64,000 nt of DNA. Origin: Clostridia bacterium (GTDB taxonomy: Bacteria; Bacillota; Clostridia; Christensenellales; QALW01). The notes under the pieces are model-generated. The model was not told the DNA's origin. It did not search any database and was given only the letters and a program-made list of their open reading frames with translations. The first letter of the stretch is position 1, and each line of letters begins with the position of its first letter. The position numbers were made by a program, and so were the translations under genes. The stretch lies in assembly GCA_045600705.1 (NCBI GenBank), contig JAZRYL010000042.1, positions 45,507-109,506 of the forward strand, written 5' to 3'. Below, piece after piece: positions 6,770-60,600 of this stretch.

Positions 6770-6788
6770 ATTCTTTCTCCTTTTTTTT

Positions 6789-13024: not shown

Positions 13025-13047
13025 TAAAAAAGCCGTTTTTCAAAAAA

Positions 13048-13167
13048 AGTAAAAAGGCAAAACACGTGAAAGCGTGTGACGCAAAGTTGTGAATCTAAAA
13101 CCGAAAGGTCATGATAGTCAAACTGCACTAATAAAGGGTTACTATACTTTATTTGTGCAGTTTTTTC
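13048..13167 (+). ncRNA. Candidate c-di-GMP-I (GEMM) riboswitch with an intrinsic terminator, upstream of the operon that starts at 13203.
   Basis: GGCAAAAC, then an ACACGU-GAAA-GCGUGU GNRA hairpin, then GACGCAAAGUU, then a hairpin with AUCUAAAACC. This is followed by the terminator ctgcac...gtgcag plus tttttt at 13123-13167. Confidence 0.55.
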
Positions 13168-16334: not shown

Positions 16335-16353
16335 TAAGTAATGCTACGGAGAA

Positions 16354-19623: not shown

Positions 19624-19640
19624 AAAACCGTCACAAAGGG

Positions 19641-20732: not shown

Positions 20733-20768
20733 AGTATGATTCCACAATCATGGAAAGAATAGGTAACT

Positions 20769-43644: not shown

Positions 43645-43724
43645 CTTTTCTGCCGAAATCATCGGCTGATAAATTCATTTTATTTGAATTAAGCACTACA
43701 AATAATTTTTTATGAGGTGATATT

Positions 43725-45047
43725 ATGGGACTTATTAAAGCAGCAATCGGCGCAGTTGGCGGCAACCTTGCAGATCAGTGGAAAGAGTTCTTTTCCTGCG
43801 ATGCATTACCCGCAGACGTGCTTGTAAGACAGGGAAATAAACAAATCGGAAAACGTTCGTCAAACACAAAGGGAAGCGACAACGTTATCAGCGACGGTTC
43901 GGGAATTGCAGTTGCCGACGGTCAGTGTATGATTATCGTTGAGCAGGGCAAGGTAGTAGAAGTCTGCGCTGAACCCGGTGTGTTCACGTACAGAACAAAT
44001 CTTGCACCCAGTCTGTTTACCGGAAGCCTCGGCGAAAGCATTAAGGCAACATTTAAGGATATCGGCGCTCGTTTCACCATGGGCGGCGCTACCGGTAAGG
44101 ATCAGCGAGTTTACTATTTCAACACAAAGGAAATCGTTGACAATAAATTCGGCACGGCAAACCCCATTCCGTTCCGTGTAGTTGACAACAAAATCGGTCT
44201 TGACATCGACGTTTCTCTGAGAATGAACGGTGTATATTCATACAAGATTGCCGATCCTATTCTTTTCTACACCAACGTTTGCGGAAACGTAGGCGAAGAA
44301 TATACCCGTGAAGAAATCGACAGTCAGCTTAAAACCGAATTCGTAAGTGCTTTGCAGCCTGCATTTGCACGTCTTTCGGATATGGAAATCCGTCCCAATC
44401 AGATAATTGCTCACAACACAGAACTTGAGCAGGCTATGAACGTTTCACTTTCGGATAAGTGGGGCAATCTCCGTGGTTTGAAGGTCGTTTCGGTGGCACT
44501 TGGTTCCGTAACACTTCCCGAAGAAGATCAGCAGCTTATCAAGGACGCTCAGAGAGCCGCTATGTACAAGGATCCCACAATGGCTGCGGCGAACCTTGCA
44601 GGCGCTCAGGCAGATGCTATGCGTACTGCGGCAGGAAACACGGCAGGCGCAATGACCGGCTTTATGGGCATGGGAATGGCTATGAACGCAGGCGGCGGTA
44701 TGGCGAATATTCAAAACCTTTACGCAATGGGCCAGCAGAATCAGGCACAGCAAGCACAGCAAAATCAGTCTGCTCCGGCAGAAAACGGTTGGAAATGTTC
44801 CTGCGGTGCAACGGCTACCGGCAAGTTCTGCACAGAATGCGGAAAAGCAAAACCGGCAGACGGATGGACCTGCACCTGCGGTGCGGTAAACCAAGGCAAA
44901 TTCTGCCCCAACTGCGGCGCAAAGAAGCCTGAGGGCGCACCCTTATACCGTTGCGACAAGTGCGGATGGACTCCGGAAGATCCTCACAATCCCCCGAAAT
45001 TCTGCCCCGAATGCGGCGACGTTTTCGACGATAACGACAAACAGTAA
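43725..45047 (+). CDS. SPFH/band-7 (YdjI-like) domain protein with three C-terminal zinc-ribbon repeats.
   Basis: N-terminus MGLIKAAIGAVGGNLADQWKEF, then an SPFH-like core. The C-terminus has three CxxC...CxxC ribbons: GWKCSCGATATGKFCTECG, GWTCTCGAVNQGKFCPNCG and YRCDKCGW...KFCPECG. Confidence 0.6.
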   Translation: MGLIKAAIGAVGGNLADQWKEFFSCDALPADVLVRQGNKQIGKRSSNTKGSDNVISDGSGIAVADGQCMIIVEQGKVVEVCAEPGVFTYRTNLAPSLFTGSLGESIKATFKDIGARFTMGGATGKDQRVYYFNTKEIVDNKFGTANPIPFRVVDNKIGLDIDVSLRMNGVYSYKIADPILFYTNVCGNVGEEYTREEIDSQLKTEFVSALQPAFARLSDMEIRPNQIIAHNTELEQAMNVSLSDKWGNLRGLKVVSVALGSVTLPEEDQQLIKDAQRAAMYKDPTMAAANLAGAQADAMRTAAGNTAGAMTGFMGMGMAMNAGGGMANIQNLYAMGQQNQAQQAQQNQSAPAENGWKCSCGATATGKFCTECGKAKPADGWTCTCGAVNQGKFCPNCGAKKPEGAPLYRCDKCGWTPEDPHNPPKFCPECGDVFDDNDKQ

Positions 45048-45158
45048 TAAATAAAGAGTTATGGGCTGTTTTGTGAAATGCAAGACAGCCCTTATAATAA
45101 ATGTAGCAATCCGGTTTGAATTTTATAGGGTTGCGACAGATTATAAGGAAGTGATTAT

Positions 45159-46259
45159 ATGCCCGATATGGAACAGTACAAGTGTCCCTCCTGCGGCGGC
45201 GCTCTTGAATTTGACAGTAAGTCGCAAAAACTGAAATGTCCCTATTGCGACGGCGAATTTGATATTGAAGTATTAAATGAAATTTCCGAAGCGGAACAGA
45301 AAATCGGAACGGAAGATAAAATGGACGGCTGGCAGAACAACCAAAGCCAAAATATGTCCAATGAAGAAAATTCTTCCGTAGCCACGTATATTTGTAAGTC
45401 CTGCGGCGGCGAGGTAATAGCAAATGTGAACACGGGTGCGACTACTTGCCCGTTCTGCGGAAACAACGTTGTAATCAACGAAAAGTTTGCGGAAACACTG
45501 CGCCCCGACCTTGTTATTCCGTTCAAACTTGACAAAAAAGCCGCAAAGGAAGCATTTATCAAGCACTTGTCCGGCAAGAAACTTTTGCCGAAGTTTTTCA
45601 GGTCGGAAAACCACGTTGACGAAATCAAAGGCGTGTATGTTCCGTTCTGGCTTTACAATGCGGACGTTGACGGCGCAGTAAAATATAACGCCACGAAAGT
45701 CAGAATGTGGTCAAGCGGCAAGTATGATTACACGGAAACAAAGTATTACGAAATATACCGTGAGGGTGGAGTGGGATTTCAGAATATTCCCGTTGACGCT
45801 TCCACAAAAATGGCGGACGATTTGATGGATTCGCTTGAACCCTTCGACTTGCACGAGGCGGTGGACTTTAATACCGCTTATCTTGCAGGATATCTTGCGG
45901 ATAAATACGATGTTACCGTTGAGGAAAACATTCCACGTATAAACACGAGGGTAAAGTCAAGTACCGAGGACGTTTTCAGAGGCACGGTAACTGAATTGTA
46001 CAATACTCTTTCAGTTAAGGATTCGTATATCGACCTTAAAAACGGAAACGCAAGATATGCACTTCTGCCCGTTTGGATACTTAACACCACGTGGAAAGAT
46101 AAAAAATACGTTTTCGCAATGAACGGTCAAACGGGAAAATTCGTGGGCAATCTGCCTATGGATAAAAAACTTTATTGGAAGTATTGGCTCATATCGTTTT
46201 TGTGCGCCATTCCCATCGGCTTGATTATATCGCTGATTGTTCAGTGGATTTGCAAGTAA
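45159..46259 (+). CDS. YdjG-like zinc-ribbon protein with a C-terminal transmembrane anchor.
   Basis: N-terminal double zinc ribbons (YKCPSCGGALEF...LKCPYCDGEF; YICKSCGGEVI...TTCPFCGNNVV), a central domain of unknown function, and a C-terminal TM (YWLISFLCAIPIGLIISLIVQWI). Confidence 0.55.
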   Translation: MPDMEQYKCPSCGGALEFDSKSQKLKCPYCDGEFDIEVLNEISEAEQKIGTEDKMDGWQNNQSQNMSNEENSSVATYICKSCGGEVIANVNTGATTCPFCGNNVVINEKFAETLRPDLVIPFKLDKKAAKEAFIKHLSGKKLLPKFFRSENHVDEIKGVYVPFWLYNADVDGAVKYNATKVRMWSSGKYDYTETKYYEIYREGGVGFQNIPVDASTKMADDLMDSLEPFDLHEAVDFNTAYLAGYLADKYDVTVEENIPRINTRVKSSTEDVFRGTVTELYNTLSVKDSYIDLKNGNARYALLPVWILNTTWKDKKYVFAMNGQTGKFVGNLPMDKKLYWKYWLISFLCAIPIGLIISLIVQWICK

Positions 46260-46272
46260 GGAGGGCGAAAAA

Positions 46273-47406
46273 ATGAAAAAACTGATTTCTGTATTAGTTG
46301 CATTTGTTATCGCCGTTTCCTGCATAAGCATTTCAGCATTTGCTCTTGACGATTTGGCGCCCGGCACGTTCTTTACTGCCGAGCAGGCGGAAAAAGCCCA
46401 AAAAATAAAAGAAAAGTTCGGGTTTGACGCAATTTTCTTTTGCACCGAAGAAACCGGAAGTTTAAGCGAACTGACGCAAGACTATCTTGCAACCAACGGC
46501 ATTACCGAAAAATATCTTATTCTTTCGACTAATGATGAGTATTATTACTGCAACTGGTCAAAAGACCTTGACGGAATATTCCACAGTGCCGACAGCAGTT
46601 TTCTGTTTGAATCCGTTTGGTATGACGGAAATGGCATCGAACTTTCGCCTCAGGAAGCAGAGGACAATTTCTTTGAACTTGTTCCGAAAACCGTGGAAAA
46701 CAGAATAAACTGTCCGTATAAGTACATAAAGGACCAGGCAGATGTTCTGACAGATGAACAGGAAAAGGAACTTGAAGGAATTCTTGCTTCGTTTAGCGAA
46801 AGCAACAACGCCGATTTTGCGGTAGTGTTTGCCAACGGAATAGATAACGGCGATTATAAAAATGACGACCGTATGGCATTCGCAGACGACTATTATGATT
46901 ACAACGGTTACGCCAAGGACGGCACGTTGCTTCTTGTAAATATCGGCGCACACGGTATTTATTCACGGGGTAACAGTTGGATTTCCACTTCGGGAAAATG
47001 TATTTATTCCGTTGACGACAGCGATATTTCAAGCATAGGCTCGAAACTTACGCCGATGCTTATCAGCGGTGAATATTTTGAGGCGGTAAAAAGTTATTCG
47101 TCTATGACGGAAAAATACCTTAAACAAGATAAAAATGAGGGAATTTCTTTGGTTGCTATTATAACTATTGTTTTAAGCATTATTGTTGCATTTATTTACA
47201 CGGGAAAACTTAAAAAACAACTTAAATCCGTAAAGGATGCTACCGACGCAAACGATTATATCGTTGACGGCTCGCTGAATATTTCCCGTGCTTACGACCA
47301 TTTCCTTTATGCACACGTTACGAAAACGGCAAGGGAAAGCAGTAGCAGCAGCGGCGGTTCGCATACGTCGTCTTCCGGCTCGTCCCATGGCGGCGGCGGA
47401 TTTTAG
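46273..47406 (+). CDS. TPM-domain (YgcG/YdjH-like) membrane protein with a Gly/Ser-rich tail.
   Basis: Signal/TM MKKLISVLVAFVIAVSCISISAFA. TPM-like core (IKDQADVLTDEQEKELEGIL...ADFAVVFANG...DGTLLLVNIGAHGIYSRGNS), a TM helix, and a C-terminal SSSSSGGSHTSSSGSSHGGGGF typical of the family. The start is taken at 46273 rather than at the listed 46237. Confidence 0.6.
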   Translation: MKKLISVLVAFVIAVSCISISAFALDDLAPGTFFTAEQAEKAQKIKEKFGFDAIFFCTEETGSLSELTQDYLATNGITEKYLILSTNDEYYYCNWSKDLDGIFHSADSSFLFESVWYDGNGIELSPQEAEDNFFELVPKTVENRINCPYKYIKDQADVLTDEQEKELEGILASFSESNNADFAVVFANGIDNGDYKNDDRMAFADDYYDYNGYAKDGTLLLVNIGAHGIYSRGNSWISTSGKCIYSVDDSDISSIGSKLTPMLISGEYFEAVKSYSSMTEKYLKQDKNEGISLVAIITIVLSIIVAFIYTGKLKKQLKSVKDATDANDYIVDGSLNISRAYDHFLYAHVTKTARESSSSSGGSHTSSSGSSHGGGGF

Positions 47407-47551
47407 CATAACAATATAAGTCAAACGGCTGATGCACAAAGGCTGAACGGCAGAACAAAGCAAACCGAAACGGCTGATGCACCAATATTAAATGACAACG
47501 GCACAAAACCGAATGGCGGCTTAATAAATAACTACAAGACATTTTCTAAAG

Positions 47552-47590
47552 AAAAAATCAACAAAGCAAGTTTGTTGATTTTTTTGTTTT
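47552..47590 (+). terminator. Rho-independent terminator closing the SPFH/ZnR/TPM operon.
   Basis: atcaacaaagcaagtttgttgat followed by tttttttgtttt. Confidence 0.6.
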
Positions 47591-47791: not shown

Positions 47792-48682
47792 ATGGCCGCA
47801 AAAACAAAAGGCGTAAAGATTTTAACGTCTGTTATTGGCATTATACTGTGCATTGTTTTTAGCGTTTCCCTGATCGTAAATATTGTAATAATAGTAAAGG
47901 GCTTTTCTGATCCGAATAACCCGCCGTCTGTTTTCGGCGTTGTTCCGATGGTCGTACAATCGGGTTCTATGAGTATATGGAATGATGCGGATGACCATTC
48001 GGCAGGCTATGTAGTGCATAAGGTTTTTCCGGATGAAATAGCCGATATGGACCGAGATAGCGTTACTTCGCTTAAAAAGGGCGACGTTATTTGGTCGTAT
48101 GAGGAGAAGTATAAAGTCAGAAATGAAGTTGTTGCCGTAATTGACAGCGGTGATGACGGCGTTTGGGTAAATACTGTTCGCCCTGCCGACGATCATATAG
48201 AAGTCGGTGATATGATTTTCTCCAAGAAAATTGATGCAAAGGACTTAAAAGTCGGGGATGTCATATCATATCTTGAAGACAGTGTTGTGGTAACGCACCG
48301 TATTATAAGAATTGATACTGCGGAAGACGGCACAATTGAATTCGTTACCAAGGGCGATGCAAACTTGTCTAAGGACGAAAAACCGGTTCCTCAGTCCAAG
48401 GTAATAGGAATTTACACGCTGAGAATAGCAAAAATAGGCGATCTTGCAATGTTTATGCAAAAACCGTTGGGAATGCTCTTGTTTGTGGGTGTTCCTCTGT
48501 TGGCATTCATTGTCTATGATATAATAAGAAGACAGTCTGCCGTTAGCAAAGCAGGAAGCAAGGATGCTGAAAAAGAAGAACTGGAGAGAAAGGCAGCGGA
48601 AATGCAGGCGGAGATTGAACGCTTACGCAAACTTTCCGAGAAAAAAGAAGAGAACGAAGAAAAACCTTCGGATACTCAATAA
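47792..48682 (+). CDS. sipW: SipW-type (archaeal/ER-type, S26B) signal peptidase I with a long C-terminal extension, copy 1.
   Basis: N-terminal TM, then VVQSGSMS, which corresponds to the SipW catalytic motif SGSMEP. C-terminal TM, then a charged coiled-coil tail. Confidence 0.55.
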   Translation: MAAKTKGVKILTSVIGIILCIVFSVSLIVNIVIIVKGFSDPNNPPSVFGVVPMVVQSGSMSIWNDADDHSAGYVVHKVFPDEIADMDRDSVTSLKKGDVIWSYEEKYKVRNEVVAVIDSGDDGVWVNTVRPADDHIEVGDMIFSKKIDAKDLKVGDVISYLEDSVVVTHRIIRIDTAEDGTIEFVTKGDANLSKDEKPVPQSKVIGIYTLRIAKIGDLAMFMQKPLGMLLFVGVPLLAFIVYDIIRRQSAVSKAGSKDAEKEELERKAAEMQAEIERLRKLSEKKEENEEKPSDTQ

Positions 48683-48861
48683 AATTATTATCAGTTTTTG
48701 ATGTTTTGCCGTGCCAATGCCACTGGCACGTTGTAAATACATACGGGAGTAATGTTTGCTCCCGGAAATCGGAGATTATAAGAGAGATAACATACTGCCA
48801 CGATGAATAAATATCTCAATTGTAAACTCATAGCTCTACTTTATATAGGAGGAAATCAAAA

Positions 48862-49560
48862 ATGAAAAAGAATTGGACAATGAGAGTTGCCGCTTTGATG
48901 GCTATTCTCACTCTTGCTACCAGTTGCTTTGTTGGCGGTACTTTCGCTAAATACGTAAGAACAGGCGCTGGCGATGATAATGCACGTGTTGCTAAATTCG
49001 GTGTTGGTATTACAGGAACCGGCGATTTGTTCAACACCACTTATGCAAAACATGACACCAGCTTCGGTATTGCAGCAGATTCAGTTGTTACATCACCCAC
49101 AGGAGATGGCAAAAAACTTGTTGCTCCCGGTACTGATGGCAATCTTGCCGCATTTGAACTTACCGGTATTCCCGAAGTTGCAGTTCGTGTAAGCTACACA
49201 GTAAACGATTTTACACTTACCAACTGGGCTGTCGGAACTGAATTCTATTGCCCGCTTATCATCAAGGTTGGCACCACAGAATTCTGCGGTCTTGACTATA
49301 CTGATGCTGATGATTTCATAGCAGATGTTAAAGTTGCAATCGAAGACACAACCTATGATTACGAAGCAAACACCGATTTGAGCGCACAGACTGCTGACGA
49401 TCTTGCTATTGCATGGAAATGGGTATTTGATGATTCTAAGGCTGATTATCCTGCAGGTCAGACCGACGTAAAGGATACTTACCTCGGAGACCGTGCTGCT
49501 GCAGGCGCTGCAGCTACAATCGCTCTTGAAGTTACCTGCGCAGTAACTCAGATCGACTAA
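48862..49560 (+). CDS. TasA/CalY (camelysin-like) family secreted protein with a SipW-cognate signal peptide.
   Basis: The signal peptide ends in FVGGTFAKYVRTG (compare TasA GGGTWAAFND; TIGR04088-type). Core motif LVAPGTDGNLAAFELTG matches the TasA box PG-x5-(F/V)-x-(F/L)-x-N-x-G. Confidence 0.5.
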   Translation: MKKNWTMRVAALMAILTLATSCFVGGTFAKYVRTGAGDDNARVAKFGVGITGTGDLFNTTYAKHDTSFGIAADSVVTSPTGDGKKLVAPGTDGNLAAFELTGIPEVAVRVSYTVNDFTLTNWAVGTEFYCPLIIKVGTTEFCGLDYTDADDFIADVKVAIEDTTYDYEANTDLSAQTADDLAIAWKWVFDDSKADYPAGQTDVKDTYLGDRAAAGAAATIALEVTCAVTQID

Positions 49561-49708
49561 TTGCAAAAATAATTACTTAATGTTTTTTTGCCTGCCATTG
49601 TGGCAGTGGCAGGCAAAAAATATTTCGTTTTTTGAGAAAAGTTATGTATTCTCAAAGGCAAATATATAGCTTTTCTGAAAAAATATTGCGAAAGGAAAAA
49701 ACAGCATA

Positions 49709-50497
49709 ATGAGCTTTTTAAGGAAGCAAAAAGTCTGGATTCTTCCTACGATTATCGTTCTTTTCATACTTGAAATACTTACATTTCCATTAGTTGTTTC
49801 GCTGACCTATGCAGGAAAAAGCGAAAGTCCCGAACATATTATTACTTATAATACCGGGAAACTGATATGGGATGACAATACTAAAGTGCGTGCAGACGGA
49901 ACAGGAGAATTAACATTATTTGATACCTTGTATCAGAATGTAAACAGTGACAACGGCGAGAAGGTTTTGGCTCCCGGTACGGAAGGGGACAACATCGTTC
50001 GACTTCATAACAAGTGCGGAAACGAAGTAACCTATACCGCTATTATGTACACTATACGTTCTGTGGGTAATTTGCCGGTTGTTGCAGTTATGGATGGCGA
50101 CGGCAATGATACTGAGGACTTTTCTTTACCAAACGGCATCGAAAAGGACAGTGTTGTCAAGGCTTTGAGCGGTAAACTTTCGGACGGACAGATTGCGGAT
50201 TTTAATATAGATTGGCATTGGACCTTCGAACAGGGAACCGAGCAGGATATCATTGATACGGCATTCGGAGATAAGGCCGCACAAGATGAAGCCGACAATG
50301 TTGTTATGGGCATATATATCGTGGTGGAAGATCAGGGATCGAAAGTGCGTCCTAATCCGCCTAAAACCGGTGATGACACCGTTATTTTCGGCTACATTAC
50401 TTTGTGTGCTATCAGTTTTATTGCAATAATTCTGCTTCTTATAACGGATAGGAAAAAGCGCAAGGAAGATGAAAGTTGCATTGAGCAAGATACTTAA
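49709..50497 (+). CDS. TasA-like protein carrying a C-terminal sortase-type sorting signal.
   Basis: TasA box VLAPGTEGDNIVRLHNKCGNEV. The C-terminus has PPKTGDD, then a hydrophobic helix (TVIFGYITLCAISFIAIILLLI), then RKKRKEDE, which is the architecture of an LPXTG-like cell-wall sorting signal. Confidence 0.5.
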   Translation: MSFLRKQKVWILPTIIVLFILEILTFPLVVSLTYAGKSESPEHIITYNTGKLIWDDNTKVRADGTGELTLFDTLYQNVNSDNGEKVLAPGTEGDNIVRLHNKCGNEVTYTAIMYTIRSVGNLPVVAVMDGDGNDTEDFSLPNGIEKDSVVKALSGKLSDGQIADFNIDWHWTFEQGTEQDIIDTAFGDKAAQDEADNVVMGIYIVVEDQGSKVRPNPPKTGDDTVIFGYITLCAISFIAIILLLITDRKKRKEDESCIEQDT

Positions 50498-50999
50498 ATG
50501 GATCGGTAGGATATTTACATTTCTTCTCATTTTAATTTTAGGCTTTAACGTTTACATTATTGTTATGCGTAGCTGTTTTAATGTTAAGATGCCTACGGTT
50601 TTCGGGTTTTCAAATGCCATAGTTTTGACGGGCAGTATGGAACCGACGATTCATGTAAATGATATGATAATTGTGAAATCACAGGACGTTTACAACGAAG
50701 GCGATATAGTAACTTATATTCCCGAAAACAACGGCACGCCTGTGACACACAGAATAATAGAAAAAAGAGATAATATTTTTATAACGCAAGGCGATGCAAA
50801 TAATACTGCAGATCCGGGAATTAAAGCGGAACAGGTTGTCGGACGTGTGGTGTTGACAATACCGTTTGTCGGAAGCATTGTTGCATTGCTTACTACACCG
50901 TTGGGACTGATGATTTTTATAATAATCGGTATTGCGGTGTTCGGCTTGGTACGGTTGATTGAAACCGTAAAAAATAAAAAGCAAACTCCGGATGAATAA
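50469..50999 (+). CDS. sipW: SipW-type signal peptidase I, copy 2.
   Basis: N-terminal TM, the exact SipW motif LTGSMEPTI, a C-terminal TM, and a size of about 176 aa typical of SipW. It overlaps the upstream gene by 29 nt. Confidence 0.65.
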   Translation: MKVALSKILKWIGRIFTFLLILILGFNVYIIVMRSCFNVKMPTVFGFSNAIVLTGSMEPTIHVNDMIIVKSQDVYNEGDIVTYIPENNGTPVTHRIIEKRDNIFITQGDANNTADPGIKAEQVVGRVVLTIPFVGSIVALLTTPLGLMIFIIIGIAVFGLVRLIETVKNKKQTPDE

Positions 51000-51019
51000 T
51001 AAGGAAAGAGAGGGACATC

Positions 51020-51670
51020 ATGTCGGAAAAGAGCGAAAAAAGTTTTTCTAAAATTCCGTTTAGGGTATACATTGTATACCTGTTAGTTGCGTCCTTCCTT
51101 TTTACAGGCGTTGCTTTTTCTAAATACGTTACATCCGGCTTCATAAACGACAGAGCACGTGTTGCAAGCATCGGAGAGGTAATTATTACCGAAACGGGCG
51201 ACTTTTCATCGTCATCCGTGGACGGTGATACCACCGAGAATTCTTATATTGTGATACCCGGAGTCGATTTAACAAAAGACGTTCGGCTTCGCTTTGACGG
51301 GTCGGAAATGGCATGCTACGTTTTCTTGCAGGTTGACCCGAACGGCTTTACCACAACGGATAATTATCACTTTGCACAGGGAAAAATTTCGTGGGCGATT
51401 GATGACTCATGGACGTTCCTTAAAGAAGACGGCGGCGTTTACGTTTATTATCATATAGTTGCCGCAAACGCTGCAATCGAAAATAAAGCTATACTTGAAG
51501 ATTCAAAAGTTACTGTAAATGAACAACTGATAAGGTCGGAACTTAACAGTCTTCCGGGTCTTCTTAACATAACCTTCAAAGCTACAGCCGCCCAGTATGA
51601 CGGTTTTGGAAATTTTGATACCGAAGAAGAACATGCTCTTGCTGCATGGAATTCGGTTAGTGCACATTGA
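51020..51670 (+). CDS. TasA/CalY-family secreted protein with a SipW-cognate signal peptide.
   Basis: Signal ...FTGVAFSKYVTSG. Core IVIPGVDLTKDVRLRFDG closely matches TasA KPGDKLTKDFQFENNG. Confidence 0.55.
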   Translation: MSEKSEKSFSKIPFRVYIVYLLVASFLFTGVAFSKYVTSGFINDRARVASIGEVIITETGDFSSSSVDGDTTENSYIVIPGVDLTKDVRLRFDGSEMACYVFLQVDPNGFTTTDNYHFAQGKISWAIDDSWTFLKEDGGVYVYYHIVAANAAIENKAILEDSKVTVNEQLIRSELNSLPGLLNITFKATAAQYDGFGNFDTEEEHALAAWNSVSAH

Positions 51671-51703
51671 TCTGTTATTAAGCATAAAGGAGGATAGAGA
51701 GCT

Positions 51704-54700
51704 GTGCATATATTCAATAAAATTAAAAAATCAAAAATAAGTATCAGAGTAATCTCAGCGGTTCTCTGCCTTTCTTATATGATATCTGTTTTTCAGCTGT
51801 TGCCAATGCTGACTAAAGCATTTGACGATGTTGACATTTATGTTGTCCGTGACGGCGAGAAGATAGATGAACTTATCATAAACTCCAACGAACATGTAAA
51901 TATCTCGGCAAAAACATCGGGATTTGTTACAACACGCTATCAGTGGCAGATTTTGGCTGACCGCCAAAATGAACTGTGGGTAGACGTTTACGATATGAGA
52001 AGCGAAGAAGCAGAAGTATCGTATGCACTTATTTCGCCTGTTATGGACGAATCAAACAGCGCATATATTCGATGTGTAGCCATACTTCCGGATAAGACGG
52101 TTTGCAGCAGCCCCGTATGCGTTACAGTACACGAACAGGCAAAATCAAACGTTCAGGGTAGCCTCGGCGCTCCTGTTTTAAGCGCTGCCCGTGCAAAAGC
52201 ACCGGTTTTATTAGGCGAACCGGCACCGGAATATGCGTATATTACCATAAATTATCTTAGTGCTGAATCCCCCGACAAAAAAGTTTTTACACCTTATGTT
52301 GCAAAAATTGCATACGATTCTACGTATTCTCAGGTCGTACCCAGCCCCACACAAATCGGATTTGCACCGTATTATTCCGGCGTGTCAGGAGATTCCGATC
52401 CCGAAAATGCCGAATACAGCGCACAGGCTATCAGTGTAAACTATAATCCGGGCGACGGTGACATCGTTTACAACGTTTATTACAAAGCCATTGACGTTCC
52501 CTATGCCGTAAAATATTTCTTCCAGAATATCAACGATGACGGATATACGCCAAATGCTTCCATATCCTTCAACGGAATGGCTAAAACCGGAACTATTGTT
52601 TCGGATGAAACTCTTAACCAACCCGTATTTGATTATTTCGGCGTTGACGAGAACGAAGATTTCGGATTTTCACCTCTTTACCATTATCCCGAATCGGTTG
52701 CTGCCGACGGTTCGACAGTATTCGAATGTTACTACGACAGAAACTATTATTTGATAAAATTTGACCTTGACGGCGGCTACGGCGTTGAACCTATTTATGC
52801 CCGTTTTGGCTCGTCATTCGTAATTACTCCCCCAAACAAGGCAGGATTTGTCTTCAAAGGATGGGATATCATCGACTCATACACGTATGACGTGTATATT
52901 GACGTTGACGGCACAGAAGTTAAAGTTGACACGGTTGTTCTTAATGCGGAACAGTACGTGGAAAAGGGAAGTCCGTCTGCGTTTGTAGGTTATTATACGT
53001 CGGGCGGAACTGAATACCCGGATGCAGTTTATAAGTTCGTTAAGGCAAGCGGCGACGGCATACCCGATAAACCCGAAGATACTTCAAAAATTCCGCTTGT
53101 ATATAACGGAACTGTTGAAGCTAAGGCCGCAAACTACAAGGCAATTTGGGAAACAACAACTACTACGTATACAATCGTTTATTGGGCTGAAAATGCCGAC
53201 GATAGCGGTTACAGTTATTGGGGCAATAAATTGGTTTCGACACAGTCAGCCACTGTTCTGACAGATTTCGATGCAATCGTTGCCGCAAACTCGGCCGCAA
53301 GCGCTTCGCTTACTGACGCAAAGTACTTTACCTATAATAGTGATAAGACAAAATTTGTGAACGGCGACGGCGTTTTGGTAGAAGGTGACGGTTCTACTAT
53401 CATAAACGTTTATTACAGCAGAAATACCTACGACCTTCTGTTCTATGATAGCGTGACCAAGTGTTACGTTCCGGAACATGTACATTCCGATTCGTGTTAT
53501 GCGTATGACTGCACATCTACACACGTTCACACCGCAGATTGCTGTAAATACGGCTTGAATGAAAATCCGCATACAGAGCTCTGTTGCGGACTTGAAAATC
53601 ACGCACACGGTGAAGAATGTCTTGTGAATTGCACTATTCCGGAGCATACTCACACTGTTGCGTGCTGTACGCTTTCGGAGCATACTCATACTGCTGCGTG
53701 CTGTAATAAAGAAGTGCACACTCATACCGCTGCGTGCATAACCTGTTCGCACGTACATACGGCGGCTTGCTATGGCGTCACCATTGCCGGATCTGCAACA
53801 GTGCCGAACGGTAACGGTTGGGATAATAGGAACGATAATAAAGACTTTATGAATCAGTTGGGTCTTACGTCCGGATATGTCTATTATTATGATGACCGTA
53901 AGGTGAATAACGCAAAGGATCACTACATTCTGTATCTCGACGGAATGTACTATAATCTGACCCAGGCAGAGTTTAATAATATAAAAGACGGAGATGAGGT
54001 TGCGAGCGGTGATTTTACCGGTACCGGTACTCTCCCTATGAAGGATTACTTTTACAAGTATAAAGCTAAGATTGTTACCGCCAAGTGCACCCATCCCACT
54101 CACGATGATTCCTGCTATAGTTGCGGCAAAACGGAGCATACGCACAGCGACGGAACCTGTACGTATAATTGCGGACAAATCGTTCATACTCACGGCGACG
54201 GAAATTGTAATCACGGCTGCGGAATGGTGGAGCATACTCATTCTGCGGCATGCAGATACAGATGTGCAAAGATAGAACATACTCATTCAAATTCGTGTTG
54301 TACCGTGCCCGCACATACGCATCAGCGTTCGTGCTATACGCTGTCCGGTACATTCAGGTCAAATAACCGAGATAGAGAAATTTCACTCGGAAATGCAACG
54401 ACGCCTACATGGACAGACAAAAGATCGGTGACAGTAAAAGGTGTCACTCTTTGGTATGATAACCAAGCGAACACTAACCAAAAGTATTTATACCTTAAGA
54501 TAGGTGAGTCCTATTACAGACTTAATTATAGCGGTACAACGGGAATCACTTACAGTAATATAAACAATATTACCGCTCTTAACTTAAACAGAACCTGTGC
54601 CTATGATGTAGAGCACACACACGGTGACGGAAACTGCACATATAATTGCATTGGCTATGAACACACACATACCGACAGCTGTTATGGATGCGGTAAAAAA

Positions 54701-57700
54701 GAACATATACACGGCGACGGAAACTGCAATTTTGCTGCATGTACAGATCCTACGCATCATGTTCACACCAGCGATTGTTTGGTATGCGGTTTTTTATCCG
54801 AGCACGTTCATGATGAAAGTTGCCCACGTGTTCTTGAATGCACGCAGACAGAACATTCGCACACTGACGGTACCTGCCGTACAACGGCATCCGGAAGCCA
54901 GGTAGACAGCGCTACACGTTATCTTGTATACAAAATAACTGCCAAATATAATGCGGATATTCACGCTCATTGGCCGATAAACGGATATAACGGAACAACG
55001 TATTCTTCCGCAAACCTTTACCGTTGGGACCCGGACAGAAGCAACAAGTTAGGATTAGATTCAGTTCTTGTTTATATGGACCGTATGCCGGGTATGGAAA
55101 GCGAAACCAATAAATCGCTTACGTTGCTCGCACAAAAGTCAAGCGGTAAATCAAATATCACCATGCACTATTGCGTACAGACAATTCCCGGTGATTCAAC
55201 GGCACAATACGTGAACTATTTAGGCGAACCGGCTGCAATAAACGCAGGTAAAGGCGGTGCAAGCGGTTATCAGTTTGTAACCGATTACCGTCGTGCCGGC
55301 GCATATTATACCGGTATCACCATGGACGTTGACTTCATCGACCTTGAAGGCTTTGAAAAATACCGTCTTTATACAAACAGCGGTGTAGATATTGCATACG
55401 CAAATAACACGACTACACGTAACGGTACGGACGACTATTTCTACTATCTCAGAAAACAGTACAATCTTTCGTTCTATAACTACAACGCCGATTGGGGTAC
55501 AACCAACAAGATATATTACGAACAGAATATGAATCCGTTCAATCCCGGTGAACCGCCGTATCCTTCAAGCCTTGAAGCCGGTGCATACGAGTTCGAAGCG
55601 TGGTACACTACGCCCGAATGTTATCCGGGAACCGAGTTCGATTGGAATGCGGTAAACAAGATGCCGGCGAAAGACGTTAAGTTATACGCAAAATGGGTTC
55701 CCGTTAAACACACGGTTAGATTCTTTGAAACCTACGACAAGATGAAAGAGTATGAACGCAGTGTTGCAAACGGTACTCCCGACGAAAGTCTTGTTTACGT
55801 CAAAGAATCCATGCCTACTGTTCCGTATAGCATGAAAGTCGATCACGGATCGTTTGTCGGTTCATTGCCTAACCCGGACAAATTGCTTGTTCAAAATTCC
55901 GGCGGATCAACCAGTGAGTATGACTTTGCAGGATGGTTTGCCGTTGAAAACGAGCAGAAAAAAGCGTTCACTCCTCTTGATATGCCTATTACGAAGGATA
56001 TGAACGTTTACGCCGATTGGGGTACGCATACAGCACAGCCCTATGCGGTTTACTACATCGTCAATGATTACGAAACAAATTCCATGTGGCTTAACATGCT
56101 CGGTGAACCTACGGAAGGCCAGAAGTGGAAGTCAAAATCGGTTACCATCGGAGGCCAACATCGCAATTATCTGTGTGTTGAGGAAAACGGTGTGTACCGT
56201 TGGTACCGTGAAGTTGCCGATAAAACAAGAGGATATGCTTACCAGGGTACTACACGAACCTTCCCTGCAAAAGCGGGCGAGTCGTTACATCAGTTATACA
56301 CAGATTACGATATAGACTTTAACCAAGGATATTATCCGACACCTGCTTCACACTCAATAACCATGGTGTATGAAGAAAACAGCTTGGAACCGATTAACAA
56401 CGTATTCGCTTTCAAGTATGTTCACGTCGATAATGTAAACTATACGGTTCGTTATCTTGATGCTGCAAACCCGGATCCCGGTAATCCTCTCCACGAGGAA
56501 AAGGTTGTTAGCACAGGAAATGCTATTGTAACGGAAAGATTCGTTCCTATACCGAACTACGTTCCGGATGCTTTCTACAAACAGTGCATTCTTGCGGTTA
56601 CTGAAGACCCGGATCATCCCGGCGTGTTCGTTTCTTCGCAGGATAACGTAATTACATTCTATTATTCAAAGAATACCACATCAGCTCGATATACTGTTCA
56701 CTTCCTTCTGCAAAAAGCAGACAGCGAACCGCTGAATGATAGTGATTTCAATGTATCCTTTGATACGAATTTGTATAGCGAATCCTACGGTACATACTCA
56801 TTCTCAAGTAAATTTGAGGAGTCCGGTTCTCGTATTGACGGTGTTGCCGATAAGGATACTCAGATACAAATAAGTCCTATCGACTTCGCAGGATTTAATC
56901 TTGTAGAGAATAAAGCAAAATATTCAAACGGTATGGGCGCCGCACAAAATGCTGCTTATTCCGGCGGCTCGTATAGCATTACGCCTGTACTTGACGGAAC
57001 CGATCTTTTCATTTTCTATGAAAGAGAATCGTATCCGTACAAGGTCTACTACTTAAAGTATGAAACACCTGTTTCAACAAGTGACCTTGCAACCTATATT
57101 ACCAAGGATGAAGCAAGAGGCGTTTTGGCCGACACAAAAGGAATGAGCGGAGATTTAATTGCACTTTACGGCAATACCTATTCCGAAAATGCGATTGATA
57201 TTGACGGATACGTTTGCGTATCGGCTCATACTATTGAAAAAGCAATTACACCGGTAGTTGAAAGCAACTATATTGTATTCTTCTACGTTCCCGAACAGTT
57301 TACTGTTCAGTACGTTGTCGCCGGCGGAAAAGGCGGAGAATTGTCCGCAACTAACGAAACCGGTTCTGCAACGTCCATAATGGGATCTGTTGCAATGGCA
57401 CTTCCCGGATACAAATTTGCGGGTTGGTTTATCGACCCGGAATGTACAATTCCGGCAATGTATGACCCGTCCACAAATCCGGACGGAAAAGGTACTACAT
57501 ATACAAGCACCTTAAAGGAAACAGAAGCCGTGGGCGAAAACGGTATTTACGTTATGCCCGACGTTGCAAAGATGATTCCTAACGGACAAGAGGGCGCAAA
57601 CAACAACATCTTCTATGCTAAATTTGATCCGCTTGTGGGCGAATTGACCGTTATTCGAAATAATTCGGATAATGAGGGCAACGGTGATCAGGTATTCGTT

Positions 57701-57958
57701 TACGAAATCAGAAATAAGACGACCGGTGCGGTATATTATGTTACTATTACAGGCAACGGATCGGCTACCGTTAAGGGTATTCCTCTCGGCGAATATACTG
57801 TGACACAGCAAAATGATTGGTCACATAGATTTGCTGACGCTTCAAAAGACGTTACAGTATCTCACTTGACAGGTGACAGCGTTACTTTTGAGGATGCCGC
57901 TGTAAAAAATAAGTGGCTGAACGGTAACGGCCACGTGGCTGTTAACAAAAAGGGGTGA
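51704..57958 (+). CDS. Giant secreted protein (2084 aa) with about 20 tandem His/Cys-rich 'EHTH...C' repeats and a C-terminal Cna-B/SpaA-like (prealbumin-fold) domain; a putative fibre-associated or metal-binding surface protein.
   Basis: Signal peptide ending LPMLTKAFDD (SipW-cognate-like). Residues around 590-1065 carry repeats CTIPEHTHTVACC, LSEHTHTAACC, KTEHTHSDGTC, MVEHTHSAAC, GYEHTHTDSC and so on. C-terminus GELTVIRNN...VKGIPLGEYTVTQ typical of the Cna B / SpaA isopeptide domain. Confidence 0.6.
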   Translation: MHIFNKIKKSKISIRVISAVLCLSYMISVFQLLPMLTKAFDDVDIYVVRDGEKIDELIINSNEHVNISAKTSGFVTTRYQWQILADRQNELWVDVYDMRSEEAEVSYALISPVMDESNSAYIRCVAILPDKTVCSSPVCVTVHEQAKSNVQGSLGAPVLSAARAKAPVLLGEPAPEYAYITINYLSAESPDKKVFTPYVAKIAYDSTYSQVVPSPTQIGFAPYYSGVSGDSDPENAEYSAQAISVNYNPGDGDIVYNVYYKAIDVPYAVKYFFQNINDDGYTPNASISFNGMAKTGTIVSDETLNQPVFDYFGVDENEDFGFSPLYHYPESVAADGSTVFECYYDRNYYLIKFDLDGGYGVEPIYARFGSSFVITPPNKAGFVFKGWDIIDSYTYDVYIDVDGTEVKVDTVVLNAEQYVEKGSPSAFVGYYTSGGTEYPDAVYKFVKASGDGIPDKPEDTSKIPLVYNGTVEAKAANYKAIWETTTTTYTIVYWAENADDSGYSYWGNKLVSTQSATVLTDFDAIVAANSAASASLTDAKYFTYNSDKTKFVNGDGVLVEGDGSTIINVYYSRNTYDLLFYDSVTKCYVPEHVHSDSCYAYDCTSTHVHTADCCKYGLNENPHTELCCGLENHAHGEECLVNCTIPEHTHTVACCTLSEHTHTAACCNKEVHTHTAACITCSHVHTAACYGVTIAGSATVPNGNGWDNRNDNKDFMNQLGLTSGYVYYYDDRKVNNAKDHYILYLDGMYYNLTQAEFNNIKDGDEVASGDFTGTGTLPMKDYFYKYKAKIVTAKCTHPTHDDSCYSCGKTEHTHSDGTCTYNCGQIVHTHGDGNCNHGCGMVEHTHSAACRYRCAKIEHTHSNSCCTVPAHTHQRSCYTLSGTFRSNNRDREISLGNATTPTWTDKRSVTVKGVTLWYDNQANTNQKYLYLKIGESYYRLNYSGTTGITYSNINNITALNLNRTCAYDVEHTHGDGNCTYNCIGYEHTHTDSCYGCGKKEHIHGDGNCNFAACTDPTHHVHTSDCLVCGFLSEHVHDESCPRVLECTQTEHSHTDGTCRTTASGSQVDSATRYLVYKITAKYNADIHAHWPINGYNGTTYSSANLYRWDPDRSNKLGLDSVLVYMDRMPGMESETNKSLTLLAQKSSGKSNITMHYCVQTIPGDSTAQYVNYLGEPAAINAGKGGASGYQFVTDYRRAGAYYTGITMDVDFIDLEGFEKYRLYTNSGVDIAYANNTTTRNGTDDYFYYLRKQYNLSFYNYNADWGTTNKIYYEQNMNPFNPGEPPYPSSLEAGAYEFEAWYTTPECYPGTEFDWNAVNKMPAKDVKLYAKWVPVKHTVRFFETYDKMKEYERSVANGTPDESLVYVKESMPTVPYSMKVDHGSFVGSLPNPDKLLVQNSGGSTSEYDFAGWFAVENEQKKAFTPLDMPITKDMNVYADWGTHTAQPYAVYYIVNDYETNSMWLNMLGEPTEGQKWKSKSVTIGGQHRNYLCVEENGVYRWYREVADKTRGYAYQGTTRTFPAKAGESLHQLYTDYDIDFNQGYYPTPASHSITMVYEENSLEPINNVFAFKYVHVDNVNYTVRYLDAANPDPGNPLHEEKVVSTGNAIVTERFVPIPNYVPDAFYKQCILAVTEDPDHPGVFVSSQDNVITFYYSKNTTSARYTVHFLLQKADSEPLNDSDFNVSFDTNLYSESYGTYSFSSKFEESGSRIDGVADKDTQIQISPIDFAGFNLVENKAKYSNGMGAAQNAAYSGGSYSITPVLDGTDLFIFYERESYPYKVYYLKYETPVSTSDLATYITKDEARGVLADTKGMSGDLIALYGNTYSENAIDIDGYVCVSAHTIEKAITPVVESNYIVFFYVPEQFTVQYVVAGGKGGELSATNETGSATSIMGSVAMALPGYKFAGWFIDPECTIPAMYDPSTNPDGKGTTYTSTLKETEAVGENGIYVMPDVAKMIPNGQEGANNNIFYAKFDPLVGELTVIRNNSDNEGNGDQVFVYEIRNKTTGAVYYVTITGNGSATVKGIPLGEYTVTQQNDWSHRFADASKDVTVSHLTGDSVTFEDAAVKNKWLNGNGHVAVNKKG

Positions 57959-58509
57959 TGAGCGTGAAGAAGAAAAAAAAGCTTGTTCTTGCATTGCTGT
58001 TGATTTTGATTCTTGCGCTTATTGCTGCCGGTGTAACAATAGCCTATATGCTGCGTAGCTCCGGCAAAATAAACAACATTTTTGAAAAAGCAGTTGTTTC
58101 ATGTGCTGTTGTAGAGGATTTTGACTCTGAAACCGGTGTTAAGAGCAGTGTTAAAGTAAGAAACACCGGAAATATCAACGGTTTTATAAGAGTTCGTCTT
58201 GTATCTTATTGGGTAGACGGTGAAGGCAATATTGTCGGAAAACCGTCTGAAATGCCAAGCGTTTCGTATGATTCCGAAAAATGGATCAAAGGAGCAAACG
58301 ACACGTATTATTGTAAAGAACCGGTAATGGTCGGGGAAGAAACTCCGGAATTTTTAGATGCGAATATTCAATTGAAATATCCGCCTGATGAAGAATATTA
58401 CCAGGTGCTTGAAGTAATTCCCGAGGCGATACAGTCCGCACCTGCAAAGGCAGTTAAAGAGGCGTGGGGAATGTATGTCAAAGACGGCAAGATATCTAAC
58501 GAGCCTTGA
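57955..58509 (+). CDS. Small TasA/camelysin-like secreted protein with a SipW-cognate signal.
   Basis: Its start overlaps the stop of the giant gene (ATGA). Signal ...AAGVTIAYMLRSSG. Core VKVRNTGNINGFIRVRL resembles the TasA FQFENNGSLAIKEV box. Confidence 0.5.
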   Translation: MMSVKKKKKLVLALLLILILALIAAGVTIAYMLRSSGKINNIFEKAVVSCAVVEDFDSETGVKSSVKVRNTGNINGFIRVRLVSYWVDGEGNIVGKPSEMPSVSYDSEKWIKGANDTYYCKEPVMVGEETPEFLDANIQLKYPPDEEYYQVLEVIPEAIQSAPAKAVKEAWGMYVKDGKISNEP

Positions 58510-58529
58510 TAAAAGAATGCATTAAATGA

Positions 58530-58563
58530 AAAACGGCAGAGAATTTTCTCTGTCGTTTTTTTG
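58530..58563 (+). terminator. Rho-independent terminator ending the SipW/TasA-like operon.
   Basis: acggcagagaattttctctgtcg followed by tttttttg. Confidence 0.7.
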
Positions 58564-58603: not shown

Positions 58604-58632
58604 TTGAAAATATAACGGTTATCGTGTATAAT
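58604..58632 (+). promoter_or_regulatory. Sigma-A-type promoter for the LuxR-family gene.
   Basis: TTGAAA (58604-58609), a 17-nt spacer, and TATAAT (58627-58632), about 90 nt upstream of the ATG at 58726. Confidence 0.5.
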
Positions 58633-58725: not shown

Positions 58726-60600
58726 ATGAAAAAACGGTTATATAATAAAGCCATACAGATATTTGTGCTTGTTTTGGGCTTTTCACTGATTTTAATGAAT
58801 ATTCCTGCTTTTGCAGTGTCGGATGTGCCTATGGCTACAACGGTAAAAGAATTCACCGATGCACTTGTGAACGCAAAAGACGGTGACACGGTGCTTGTGG
58901 GGGATATCACGTTCAAGCCGATGCCTATGGGCATGATATCCGTGCAGAAGAATGTTAAAATCAAAAGCGGCAAGGACACAAATGCGATTTTTACCAATGC
59001 GACATTTGCGTTTAACGGTTCGGTTGCGGATTCGGCGCCGCTCAGTGTTCAGTTTGAAAATATTGATTTCCGAGGCGATTGCTTCGGCAAGGAAATAAAC
59101 CCTGCCTCTCCACCCGAAATCAGTTCTAAAATTCCGAGCATTATGAAAACCATGTGTGCGGGAATTTTCAAAATGAACGTGAACGCTTCGTACAGTAACT
59201 GTACCTTTGAGGGCTACCATTACGGCTACGGCGGAGTTTTCAGCGCAATTTATTCTTCCGATGACAACAAAAATATGCTTAATTTGTCCCTTGACGGATG
59301 CACTTTCAAAAACAATGCGGCAAAATACGGCGGAAGCATATATTTGTCCGGCTACGGGCATAACATCAATTTTGATGCTCGCCATTGCATTTTTGAAGAT
59401 AACTGTGCCACCACCGGCGGAGCAATTTGGGCGGAGGATGCAAATGTGCATTTGCTTGATTGCTCGCTTACGGGAAACCGTTACATAGAGGAAGACGTTA
59501 CCGAACCTAACGGCGGAGCGCTGGCACTTTATAATTGCGGAGTGGACCTTGACGGATGCCTGATTGCCAATAACACGTCCGGCGGCGACGGGGCGGGAGT
59601 GTACTGTTCCATTTCGCCGTTCAAAACGCTGATTATGGAAAACTGTACCGTAATCGGCAATGAAGCGTCTGCGGATAAAGGTATTTCGGTGGCTCTTGAA
59701 AAAACGAAACTTGACACTTCTGCGGCGGCACACATTTACTTCTCGTCGCTTTTCGGAGAACAGAATTTTTCCGACAATGTGGAACTTTTCGGATGCCTTA
59801 TCGTCGAAAAAAATATTGATGAAAAGGAACCGACCGAAGAAAATAACTACTGTCTTGAACTGACCGAGGAAACCGCACGGGAAAAAGGACTTGTTCCCGA
59901 TTTAGCGGAAAATGCCGAGCATATAAGCGTTCCGCAGGGAGAATACACGGTTCCGCAGGAAGCGATAGACAAGGTTGCCGGCGGAAAGTTCTCCCAAAGT
60001 ATGGGCATATTGCAGGTGGGCGATAATTACCGCAAGGAAGAAACGGTTCAAGTCAAAATTACTCCCGAACGCACGGAAAATGTGACAGTTGCATACGGCG
60101 AAGAACTGACCTTGCCCGAACCGGAAAGAAAAGGCTTTTCGTTTGAAAAGTGGGAAAGTCCGCTTGATGCCGATAAAACGGTGTTTATGGGTGGCGAACT
60201 TCCCGAAACACCTATTAAGGCACAGTGGCACTTTGATTTTTTCGACAAACTGTATGTTGTTTGGATACTGATATTTGCATTTGCTCTTGCAATCGCCTTT
60301 TTGATTTATCAGCGCAGAAGAAAATCGACGGAGGCTGTTCCTCTTGCCGAAAACGGCGACAATCTGCCTCTTTCGGACGATTGGATAAATAAGGTCTGCG
60401 AAAGTCCGGAAATCACCGCACTTATTTCAAAGCGCGAACTTGAAGTGTTACATAAACTTCTTGAGGGAAAAAGCCGAAAACAAATAGCAGAGGAACTTTT
60501 TATTACGGAAGCGACTATTCGCAAACATTCCACAAATATTTATTCAAAACTTGAAGTGCATAACCGAACCGAACTCGTTTATAAATTAACAAAGCACTGA
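58726..60600 (+). CDS. Membrane-anchored LuxR/GerE-family transcriptional regulator with an extracytoplasmic parallel beta-helix (pectin-lyase-fold) domain.
   Basis: The start is taken at MKKRLYNK (RBS ggag), not at the listed 58561. Signal/TM, then PbH1-like repeats (NNAAKYGGSIYL; CATTGGAIWAED; NNTSGGDGAGVYC), a TM (LYVVWILIFAFALAIAFLIY), and a C-terminal HTH_LuxR (SKRELEVLHKLLEGKSRKQIAEELFITEATIRKHSTNIYSKL). Confidence 0.65.
   Translation: MKKRLYNKAIQIFVLVLGFSLILMNIPAFAVSDVPMATTVKEFTDALVNAKDGDTVLVGDITFKPMPMGMISVQKNVKIKSGKDTNAIFTNATFAFNGSVADSAPLSVQFENIDFRGDCFGKEINPASPPEISSKIPSIMKTMCAGIFKMNVNASYSNCTFEGYHYGYGGVFSAIYSSDDNKNMLNLSLDGCTFKNNAAKYGGSIYLSGYGHNINFDARHCIFEDNCATTGGAIWAEDANVHLLDCSLTGNRYIEEDVTEPNGGALALYNCGVDLDGCLIANNTSGGDGAGVYCSISPFKTLIMENCTVIGNEASADKGISVALEKTKLDTSAAAHIYFSSLFGEQNFSDNVELFGCLIVEKNIDEKEPTEENNYCLELTEETAREKGLVPDLAENAEHISVPQGEYTVPQEAIDKVAGGKFSQSMGILQVGDNYRKEETVQVKITPERTENVTVAYGEELTLPEPERKGFSFEKWESPLDADKTVFMGGELPETPIKAQWHFDFFDKLYVVWILIFAFALAIAFLIYQRRRKSTEAVPLAENGDNLPLSDDWINKVCESPEITALISKRELEVLHKLLEGKSRKQIAEELFITEATIRKHSTNIYSKLEVHNRTELVYKLTKH

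Follow-up and report, generated by a model that had tools for sequence, protein, structure and literature searches.

The 64-kb stretch of contig JAZRYL010000042.1 analyzed here (the window), from a member of the Clostridia, contains a seven-gene operon, g1 to g7, that we consider likely, with a probability of roughly 60%, to encode a heteropolymeric surface fibre anchored to the cell wall and belonging to the SipW-dependent TasA/BsaA kind rather than to the sortase-polymerised pili. The operon consists of seven co-directional open reading frames (ORFs) on the plus strand (47792–58509) and an intrinsic terminator at its 3′ end, a GC-containing hairpin followed by T7 at about 58530–58563. The genes specify two SipW-like signal peptidases (g1 and g4), a putative major fibre subunit (g2), a g2 paralog that bears a cell-wall sorting signal at its C-terminus (g3), a further paralog as minor subunit (g5), a secreted giant protein (g6), and a small BsaA-like subunit (g7). 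Our reading is carried by what we observed of the gene content, the paralogy of the subunits, their conservation, the sorting signal, and its association with sortases. An initial annotation had described the region as a TasA-like fibre locus; the locus proved real, and several details of that description are corrected below.

Profile-profile comparison with hhalign, performed with families built from related loci, connected g2 with g3 (probability of 99.3%), g2 with g5 (99.2%), and g5 with g7 (88%), the alignment of g2 with g7 being confined to the signal peptide. The proteins g2 (48862–49560, 232 amino acids, C-terminus TQID), g3 (49709–50497, 262 amino acids), g5 (51020–51670, 216 amino acids), and g7 (57955–58509, 184 amino acids) form one divergent family of secreted β-sandwich proteins, with g7 as the outlier. 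All four begin with a hydrophobic segment that ends in a T-x-A-like site, the signal-peptide ends reading GGTFA↓KY in g2, SLTYA↓GK in g3, GVAFS↓KY in g5, and GVTIA↓YM in g7. An N-terminal segment, D-x-ARVAKFGV, is near-invariant in g2 and is kept as D-x-ARVA-x-F in g5; g3 has no ARVAKF segment, and g7 has N-x-F-x-P-A-x-V instead. A TasA-like stretch, PGVDLTKDV, is also present in g5. The four proteins had been grouped at the outset by a shared PG-x5-V-x-L-x-N-x-G box. Their relatedness is borne out by the profile comparison, but the full box occurs in the window only in g3, and across orthologs its strict form was found in 35 of 75 g3, 3 of 73 g5, 0 of 89 g2, and 0 of 35 g7 sequences.

No Pfam or NCBIfam model matched g2, g3, or g5 at E ≤ 0.1, and no TasA, BsaA, or SipW-cognate family was matched when 47 g2 homologs were scanned against NCBIfam. 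Searches of plasmids with g2 and g7 by tblastn yielded no match, searches of Protein Data Bank (PDB) sequences with the g3-family and g7-family profiles yielded nothing meaningful, and the matches of a g7 profile search were all unannotated, with no bridge to named families. The AlphaFold2 model of g7 (mean predicted local distance difference test score, 92.8) is an immunoglobulin (Ig)-like sandwich, and the best Foldseek match of g2 was the Tafi pilus; the fold matches as a whole are generic Ig-like sandwiches.

The two peptidases are a protein of 296 amino acids with a charged C-terminal tail (g1, 47792–48682) and a shorter one of 176 amino acids (g4, 50469–50999). Both scored above the cut-off of 51.85 bits of the NCBIfam model for archaeal/endoplasmic reticulum-type signal peptidase I, TIGR02228 (70.1 bits for g1 and 88.6 bits for g4), and g4 also matched Pfam Peptidase_S26 and S24. 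Given that they attained only 76–81 bits versus 190 with NF046067, the equivalog model for Bacillus SipW, g1 and g4 are of the same type as Bacillus SipW and are not its orthologs. The catalytic Ser lies in the context (S/T)(G/D)SM and the catalytic His in (T)HR(I/V), an arrangement of the Ser-His type, with no Lys general base. Both residues are invariant in 102 of 102 g1-labelled orthologs, as is the Asn of the GDAN motif, the Asp of which is kept in 95; among g4-labelled orthologs, the Ser is kept in 49 of 49 and the His in 46 of 49. Because Ser and His are conserved across orthologs, g1 and g4 are likely to be active enzymes. Their assignment to the SipW type in the initial annotation is thus upheld, but the SGSMEP motif that it ascribed to both is not: g4 reads TGSMEP, and g1 reads SGSMS, followed by an insert of ~70 residues between the catalytic Ser and His (residues ~61–135, positions 47965–48195) that is found in about 6 of the 102 orthologs. 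The C-terminal tail of g1 (48530–48682) is rich in Lys and Glu and has a coiled-coil-like look.

A scan of one genome per species revealed 318 relatives, and 80 loci, the ORFs of which were classified with jackhmmer, were kept for analysis. Seventy-nine of these loci carry Clostridia titles (Ruminococcaceae, Acutalibacteraceae, Oscillospiraceae, Lachnospiraceae, and unclassified Eubacteriales), the exception being L042, from a bin labelled Bacteroidales. The gene order sipW, g2, g3, sipW, g5, giant, g7 recurs in most of the 80 independent loci, and the arrangement is therefore far beyond chance. SipW genes adjoin in nearly all related loci, g3 lies directly after g2 in 72 of the 80, and g2, g3, g5, g6, and g7 occur together in 31, with the remaining loci being truncated by contig ends or carrying a different giant. 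A variant cassette, in which sipW-g2-g3-sipW-g5 is combined with a non-g6 giant of ~1430–2100 amino acids and g7 is missing, was found in L010, L016, L021, L025, L063, L071, and L083. The g2 family itself is very large: more than 3400 word-index matches were obtained, none of them bearing a Pfam domain or an informative name, and an exhaustive profile search detected 5739 clusters (50% identity) at E ≤ 1e-3, of which 1242 reached E ≤ 1e-30. That some species possess several shaft variants is suggested by g2 paralogs in tandem, of which there are four in L078 (1655–4807) and two in L038.

Within the operon, g2 is flanked by gaps of 179 nucleotides on its 5′ side and 148 nucleotides on its 3′ side, the latter containing a hairpin (49584–49620) with a 17-bp stem and a folding energy of −25.6 kcal/mol. 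A hairpin of −15 kcal/mol or stronger is present in the g2–g3 gap of 63 of 69 related loci (median of −26 kcal/mol), and the other junctions are tight or overlapping; in the window, g3 and g4 overlap by 29 nucleotides. The g2–g3 hairpin probably sets the stoichiometry of the subunits, either by terminating transcription in part or by stabilising the mRNA. The description of a single operon running from 47792 to the terminator is consistent with the seven same-strand ORFs and the terminator, although the unit is not uniform, with g2 being set apart by its gaps and hairpin. Its 5′ boundary is a terminator-like hairpin at 47552–47584 (plus strand; two perfectly complementary 14-nucleotide arms followed by a T-run) that closes an upstream gene for a TPM-domain protein. 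No riboswitch or known RNA was found in the operon leader.

The giant protein g6 (51704–57958, 2084 amino acids), a putative distal adhesin, has an ordinary Sec signal, a conserved N-terminal domain, and Listeria-Bacteroides (Flg_new) repeats (Pfam, 4e-10). Its C..C....EH.H....C units (C-x2-3-C-x3-5-(E)H-x-H-x3-4-C, positions 53474–54900) contain 18 HxH motifs in clusters at residues 592–690, 812–880, and 971–1060, with Tyr/Asn-rich modules of ~110 residues between the clusters. The initial annotation had described the giant by these Cys/His repeats. The number of HxH motifs is 22–24 in the three largest g6 orthologs, intermediate in a few more, and 0–4 elsewhere, so that the repeats, abundant in the largest orthologs alone, are instead an optional, lineage-specific insert. 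The repeats may bind metal. No relative of the repeats was found in PDB or Pfam, single g6 segments gave nothing meaningful against PDB sequences, and g6 contains no tandem repeats at the DNA level. The ~110 residues at the C-terminus are conserved (...YTV.Q.N.WSWRY... and a WLNGNS....N.KG tail), and the Cna-B/SpaA-like end proposed in the initial annotation persists as a conserved, putative prealbumin/Cna-B-like domain whose matches are all sub-threshold: DUF5979 (E of 4e-4), DUF7601 (3e-3), and SpaA (0.04–0.12) for g6 itself. At E ≤ 0.01, 6 of 31 g6 orthologs matched DUF7601, 4 matched SpaA, and 3 matched DUF5979, and the profile of the C-terminal region matched a Cna-B-type pilus/adhesin domain in PDB (8bdw) with an E value of 0.035.

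Among loci with a g6-type giant, g7 was present in 26 of 26 (after correction for extended ORFs), and of the 11 loci with another giant, 10 lacked it. The two genes overlap by 4 nucleotides in the window, by which g7 is translationally coupled to g6. This strict coupling could also be accommodated if the operon were a secretion or display module for the giant that makes no fibre, with the small proteins serving as stoichiometric accessory, scaffold, or chaperone-like factors and g3 as a wall-anchored dock for g6. The generic nature of the Ig-like fold matches is compatible with such a module, as is the fact that fibre polymerisation rests on precedent. We nevertheless consider this explanation unlikely. 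Given the size of the g2 family, its near-invariant N-terminal segment, the strong hairpin after its gene, and the presence of up to four tandem copies, g2 looks more like a structural subunit made in abundance than like a chaperone. The variant cassettes, moreover, retain g2, g3, and g5 even though the giant has been swapped.

The C-terminus of g3 consists of PPKTGD, 20 hydrophobic residues, and RKKRK. The initial annotation had recognised in it the architecture of a sortase substrate and had noted that a tail without conservation in orthologs would count against this assignment; all 10 close homologs retain the tail, and [SAP]PxTGD with a transmembrane segment and a basic tail is found in 60 of 69 complete g3 orthologs (consensus of [SAP]-P-[KQ]-T-G-D), most of the others having a degenerate motif with the same transmembrane segment and basic tail. 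The motif of g3 fits that of clostridial class B sortases, (S/P)PxTG, which for Clostridioides difficile SrtB includes PPKTG and SPKTG (PMC4155245, PMC5118464, PMC4591827). Class B sortase genes lie within 5 of the 80 related loci, in 3 of them at the operon end. A sortase gene is the last gene of the more distant homologous operon of L003/L004 and of the operons of L053, L056, and L076, and one adjoins the operon in L049 and L055; the sortases tested were class B in 6 of 6 cases (TIGR03064, 138–196 bits), those of L003, L049, L053, L056, and L076 among them. Because the tail is conserved in orthologs and class B sortase genes occur in related loci, it is a sound inference that one subunit, g3, is anchored to the cell wall by a class B sortase encoded elsewhere in the genome.

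Slightly less probable again than a display module is a fibre that is released into a biofilm matrix like that of Bacillus TasA, in which case g3 would not anchor the fibre covalently but act as a TapA-like nucleator or as a wall protein in its own right. Such a fibre has the Bacillus precedent in its favour, and the BsaA oligomers of C. perfringens strain 13 are membrane-associated and not linked to peptidoglycan (PMC11580942); a sortase was also not found in the window. Set against it are the nature of g3 as a full-length paralog of the shaft subunit, its position directly after g2 in most loci, the retention of its sorting signal, and the sortase B genes of several related loci. We rejected as highly improbable a classical SpaA-type pilus, in which a sortase would join the subunits covalently, given that, despite the Cna-B/SpaA-like C-terminal domain of g6, the one sorting signal, and the sortase genes in related loci, the signal is present on g3 alone and not on the backbone candidate g2 or on g5, g6, or g7, the associated sortases are class B enzymes and not class C pilus polymerases, and dedicated SipW peptidases are foreign to sortase pili.

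With regard to the wall-anchored fibre of the TasA/BsaA kind, the relation of its subunits to the named families is distant. As a reference we used TasA, the sequence of which was checked against PDB 8aur and 5of1, together with four plasmid-borne Bacillus TasA/CalY proteins. A collinear motif pair, consisting of the PG box and, 50–200 residues later, [QD][NT]x[FYL]Q?G[DN], was present in 5 of 5 TasA/CalY, 77 of 89 g2, and 66 of 75 g3 sequences, compared with 0 of 957 unrelated ORFs. The BsaA family model TIGR04090 matched g7 over its N-terminal 84 residues (38.3 bits, E of 1.2e-9) as well as 23 of 27 g7 orthologs (best E of 1.3e-12), and did not match g2, g3, or g5. Three residues of g7, N41, E54, and K63, are invariant in 61–65 sequences. 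The small proteins probably work like members of the TasA/BsaA superfamily, of which they would be very distant relatives. Membership of g2, g3, and g5 in TasA/CalY proper (Pfam Peptidase_M73/IPR022121), as the initial annotation had implied, was not demonstrated: no family model matched them. The term amyloid applied there is also outdated, since TasA fibres consist of globular subunits joined by donor-strand complementation (PDB 8aur, as cited in PMC11580942).

Several observations weigh against our reading. Alignment with hhalign of the four families to TasA or to the five-member TasA/CalY profile gave probabilities of ≤30% and covered the signal peptide only. The motif-pair test was devised after the sequences had been inspected and is thus post hoc. 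The score of the window g7 with TIGR04090 is below the curated cut-off of 60 bits, with the match covering only the N-terminal half of the protein, and the likening of its N41, E54, and K63 to N35, E56, and K74 of BsaA is by kind of residue and not by alignment. On g3, the sorting-signal models TIGR01167 and TIGR03063 remained below threshold (E of 0.06–0.07). As the initial annotation had stated, the window encodes no sortase: none was detected in its six-frame translation with a hidden Markov model built from nine class B sortases (E ≤ 10) or among its long ORFs with Pfam. Only 5 of the 80 related loci have a sortase gene inside 10 kb. Finally, polymerisation, subunit order, and the covalent lock are inferred from the precedents of BsaA, TasA, and archaeal fibres.

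On the basis of these precedents, assembly may proceed as follows. Sec would export all subunits, which would stay tethered through their signal anchors until the SipW paralogs cleave after the G-x-T-x-A site and so free the N-terminal segment. We assign the shaft to g2 because its family far exceeds the others in size, gaps and a hairpin isolate its gene, and some genomes have it in tandem copies; the D-x-ARVAKFGV segment of g2 would be donated to the β-sandwich of a neighbouring subunit, as in the strand exchange of TasA and BsaA. With its acceptor body and no ARVAKF segment to donate, g3 would end the fibre at the base, where a class B sortase encoded elsewhere in the genome would join it to peptidoglycan at PPKT↓G. 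The distal part would be made up of g5, g6, and g7. Having kept ARVA, g5 could connect the tip to the shaft, and g7, made 1:1 with g6, may dock onto g6 at the latter's conserved C-terminal domain or tail, an interaction that is perhaps locked by a BsaA-type Asn-Lys isopeptide bond through the invariant N/E/K residues. The adhesin would be g6, in which the Cys/His inserts would form a spacer that is optional and may bind metal. Of all steps in this scheme, we are least sure of the order of the subunits and of any covalent lock.

The closest known system is the bsa operon of C. perfringens, which in most strains reads sipW-bsaA-bsaB(LPXTG)-bsaB′-bsaC with srtB adjacent, the LPXTG-bearing BsaB thus being present in most strains (PMC11580942; Obana 2020, PMC7395162; Kivimaki 2024/25). 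BsaA polymerises by strand exchange with an N35–K74 isopeptide lock that involves E56 (PMC11580942). Both operons begin with a gene for a SipW-type peptidase and encode a polymerising subunit (putatively g2 here), a paralog with a sortase signal, a further paralog, and a large "cargo" protein, and for both, some genomes encode a class B sortase close to the operon; in addition, g7 matches the BsaA family model, at a sub-threshold score, and has the invariant N/E/K residues. In contrast to bsa, the present operon has two peptidases, a main subunit family (g2) that TIGR04090 does not recognise, and, coupled to the giant, one more gene of the BsaA-like kind. In place of the 70-kDa vWA protein BsaC, it encodes a repeat protein of 1400–2300 amino acids with a Cna-B-like end, and the operon family is known from its genes alone.

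Resemblance to tapA-sipW-tasA of Bacillus subtilis and sipW-tasA-calY of B. cereus (PDB 5of1, 8aur) extends to the dedicated SipW-type peptidase, the small secreted β-sandwich subunits, the GGT-x-A end of the signal peptide, the PG box, the C-terminal [QD][NT]x[FL](Q)GD motif, and the last strand ending in Q. The loci of archaeal TasA-like strand-donation pili and of the AbpX type (AbpA, 7ueg; Tafi, 9p0a; 10.64898/2026.01.04.697558) follow the same logic, with a fibre subunit, minor subunits, a predicted tip protein, a dedicated signal peptidase, and, in bacteria, LPXTG anchors and sortases. With chaperone-usher and sortase pili the likeness is one of architecture only, comprising a tip adhesin, adaptors, a shaft, a terminator or anchor subunit, a hairpin after the gene for the major subunit, and a wall-linked base as provided by SpaB or basal pilins; the present operon differs from them in having no chaperone or usher and no sortase-mediated polymerisation.

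Operons that combine TasA/BsaA paralogs with signal peptidases, sortases, LPXTG proteins, and SpaA domains have been described (PMC11580942). According to a 2026 bioRxiv preprint, bacterial TasA-like (AbpX) loci contain sortases, tip and minor subunits, and LPXTG anchors, the last of which are predicted to strand-complement TasA-like fibres (10.64898/2026.01.04.697558). Given that these two studies already sketch the concept, the suggestion of an undescribed system was too strong. What sets the present cassette apart is the huge g2 family without a database model, the pair of peptidases, the Flg_new/Cna-B-like giant with its BsaA-like adaptor, and the wide spread in gut Clostridia. A more far-reaching proposal, to which we give somewhat less than even odds, is that gut Clostridia (Oscillospiraceae, Ruminococcaceae, Acutalibacteraceae, and Lachnospiraceae) possess a wall-anchored Gram-positive pilus of a third kind, with a strand-exchange shaft of a SipW-processed family that has no model, a terminator subunit anchored by a class B sortase, and a giant adhesin that caps the shaft by way of a BsaA-like adaptor and is maybe locked by an isopeptide bond.

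Downstream of the operon, g8 (58726–60600, plus strand, with the start corrected to 58726) encodes a single-pass membrane protein with a cytoplasmic LuxR/GerE helix-turn-helix domain and an extracellular part composed of a PMP/pectate-lyase-like β-helix and a Flg_new repeat. The gene has its own strong, near-consensus promoter at 58604–58632. We considered this LuxR-type membrane regulator as a component of the system and rejected it, a counterpart being present in no related locus. Upstream, a plus-strand run of genes (43012–47406) encodes a DUF6935 protein, an SPFH/Band-7 protein with C-terminal zinc ribbons, a multi-zinc-ribbon membrane protein, and the TPM-domain membrane protein. Just past the last of these genes, an 18-nucleotide direct repeat, AAACGGCTGATGCAC(A/C)AA, occurs in two copies 45 nucleotides apart (47423–47485).

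Elsewhere in the window, two cyclic di-GMP (c-di-GMP)-I riboswitch aptamers on the plus strand (9942–10028 and 13046–13130, 73 and 70 bits) precede genes for a secreted protein of 397 amino acids with a Pro/Thr/Ala linker (10082–11275) and a lipoprotein-like protein of 223 amino acids (13203–13874), neither of which has a Pfam domain. A plus-strand cluster (14103–26559 and 33031–34707) encodes a protein with an HD-GYP-type HD domain, a protein of 1089 amino acids, a HEAT-repeat protein, a glycosyltransferase of family GT2 resembling processive synthases, and two proteins of ~730 amino acids, with a gene for a response-regulator GGDEF-EAL protein close by; this cluster may be a c-di-GMP-controlled exopolysaccharide unit near the fibre operon. 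A protein of 1996 amino acids with DUF5060 and an apiosidase-like catalytic domain (26649–32639, minus strand) is probably a large secreted glycoside hydrolase. A ZMP/ZTP riboswitch (6848–6945, minus strand, 47 bits), which overlaps the 5′ end of an ORF with a GTG start (6050–6943), heads genes of the inosine monophosphate (IMP) cyclohydrolase-like and AICARFT/IMPCHase type.

The adhesive appendages of the dominant, mostly uncultured Clostridia of the gut are almost unknown, and the cassette described here is present in at least 318 species representatives, with a main subunit family that has no Pfam or NCBIfam model. If our reading is correct, these bacteria would possess a widespread fibre of the TasA/BsaA type that is covalently anchored to the wall and bears a tip adhesin, a proposal that is testable, and the concepts of "matrix fibre" and "pilus" would be joined in Gram-positive bacteria. 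The operon would then provide candidates for adhesion to host or substrate and for phage receptors, as well as parts for protein engineering in the form of strand exchange and a possible isopeptide lock.

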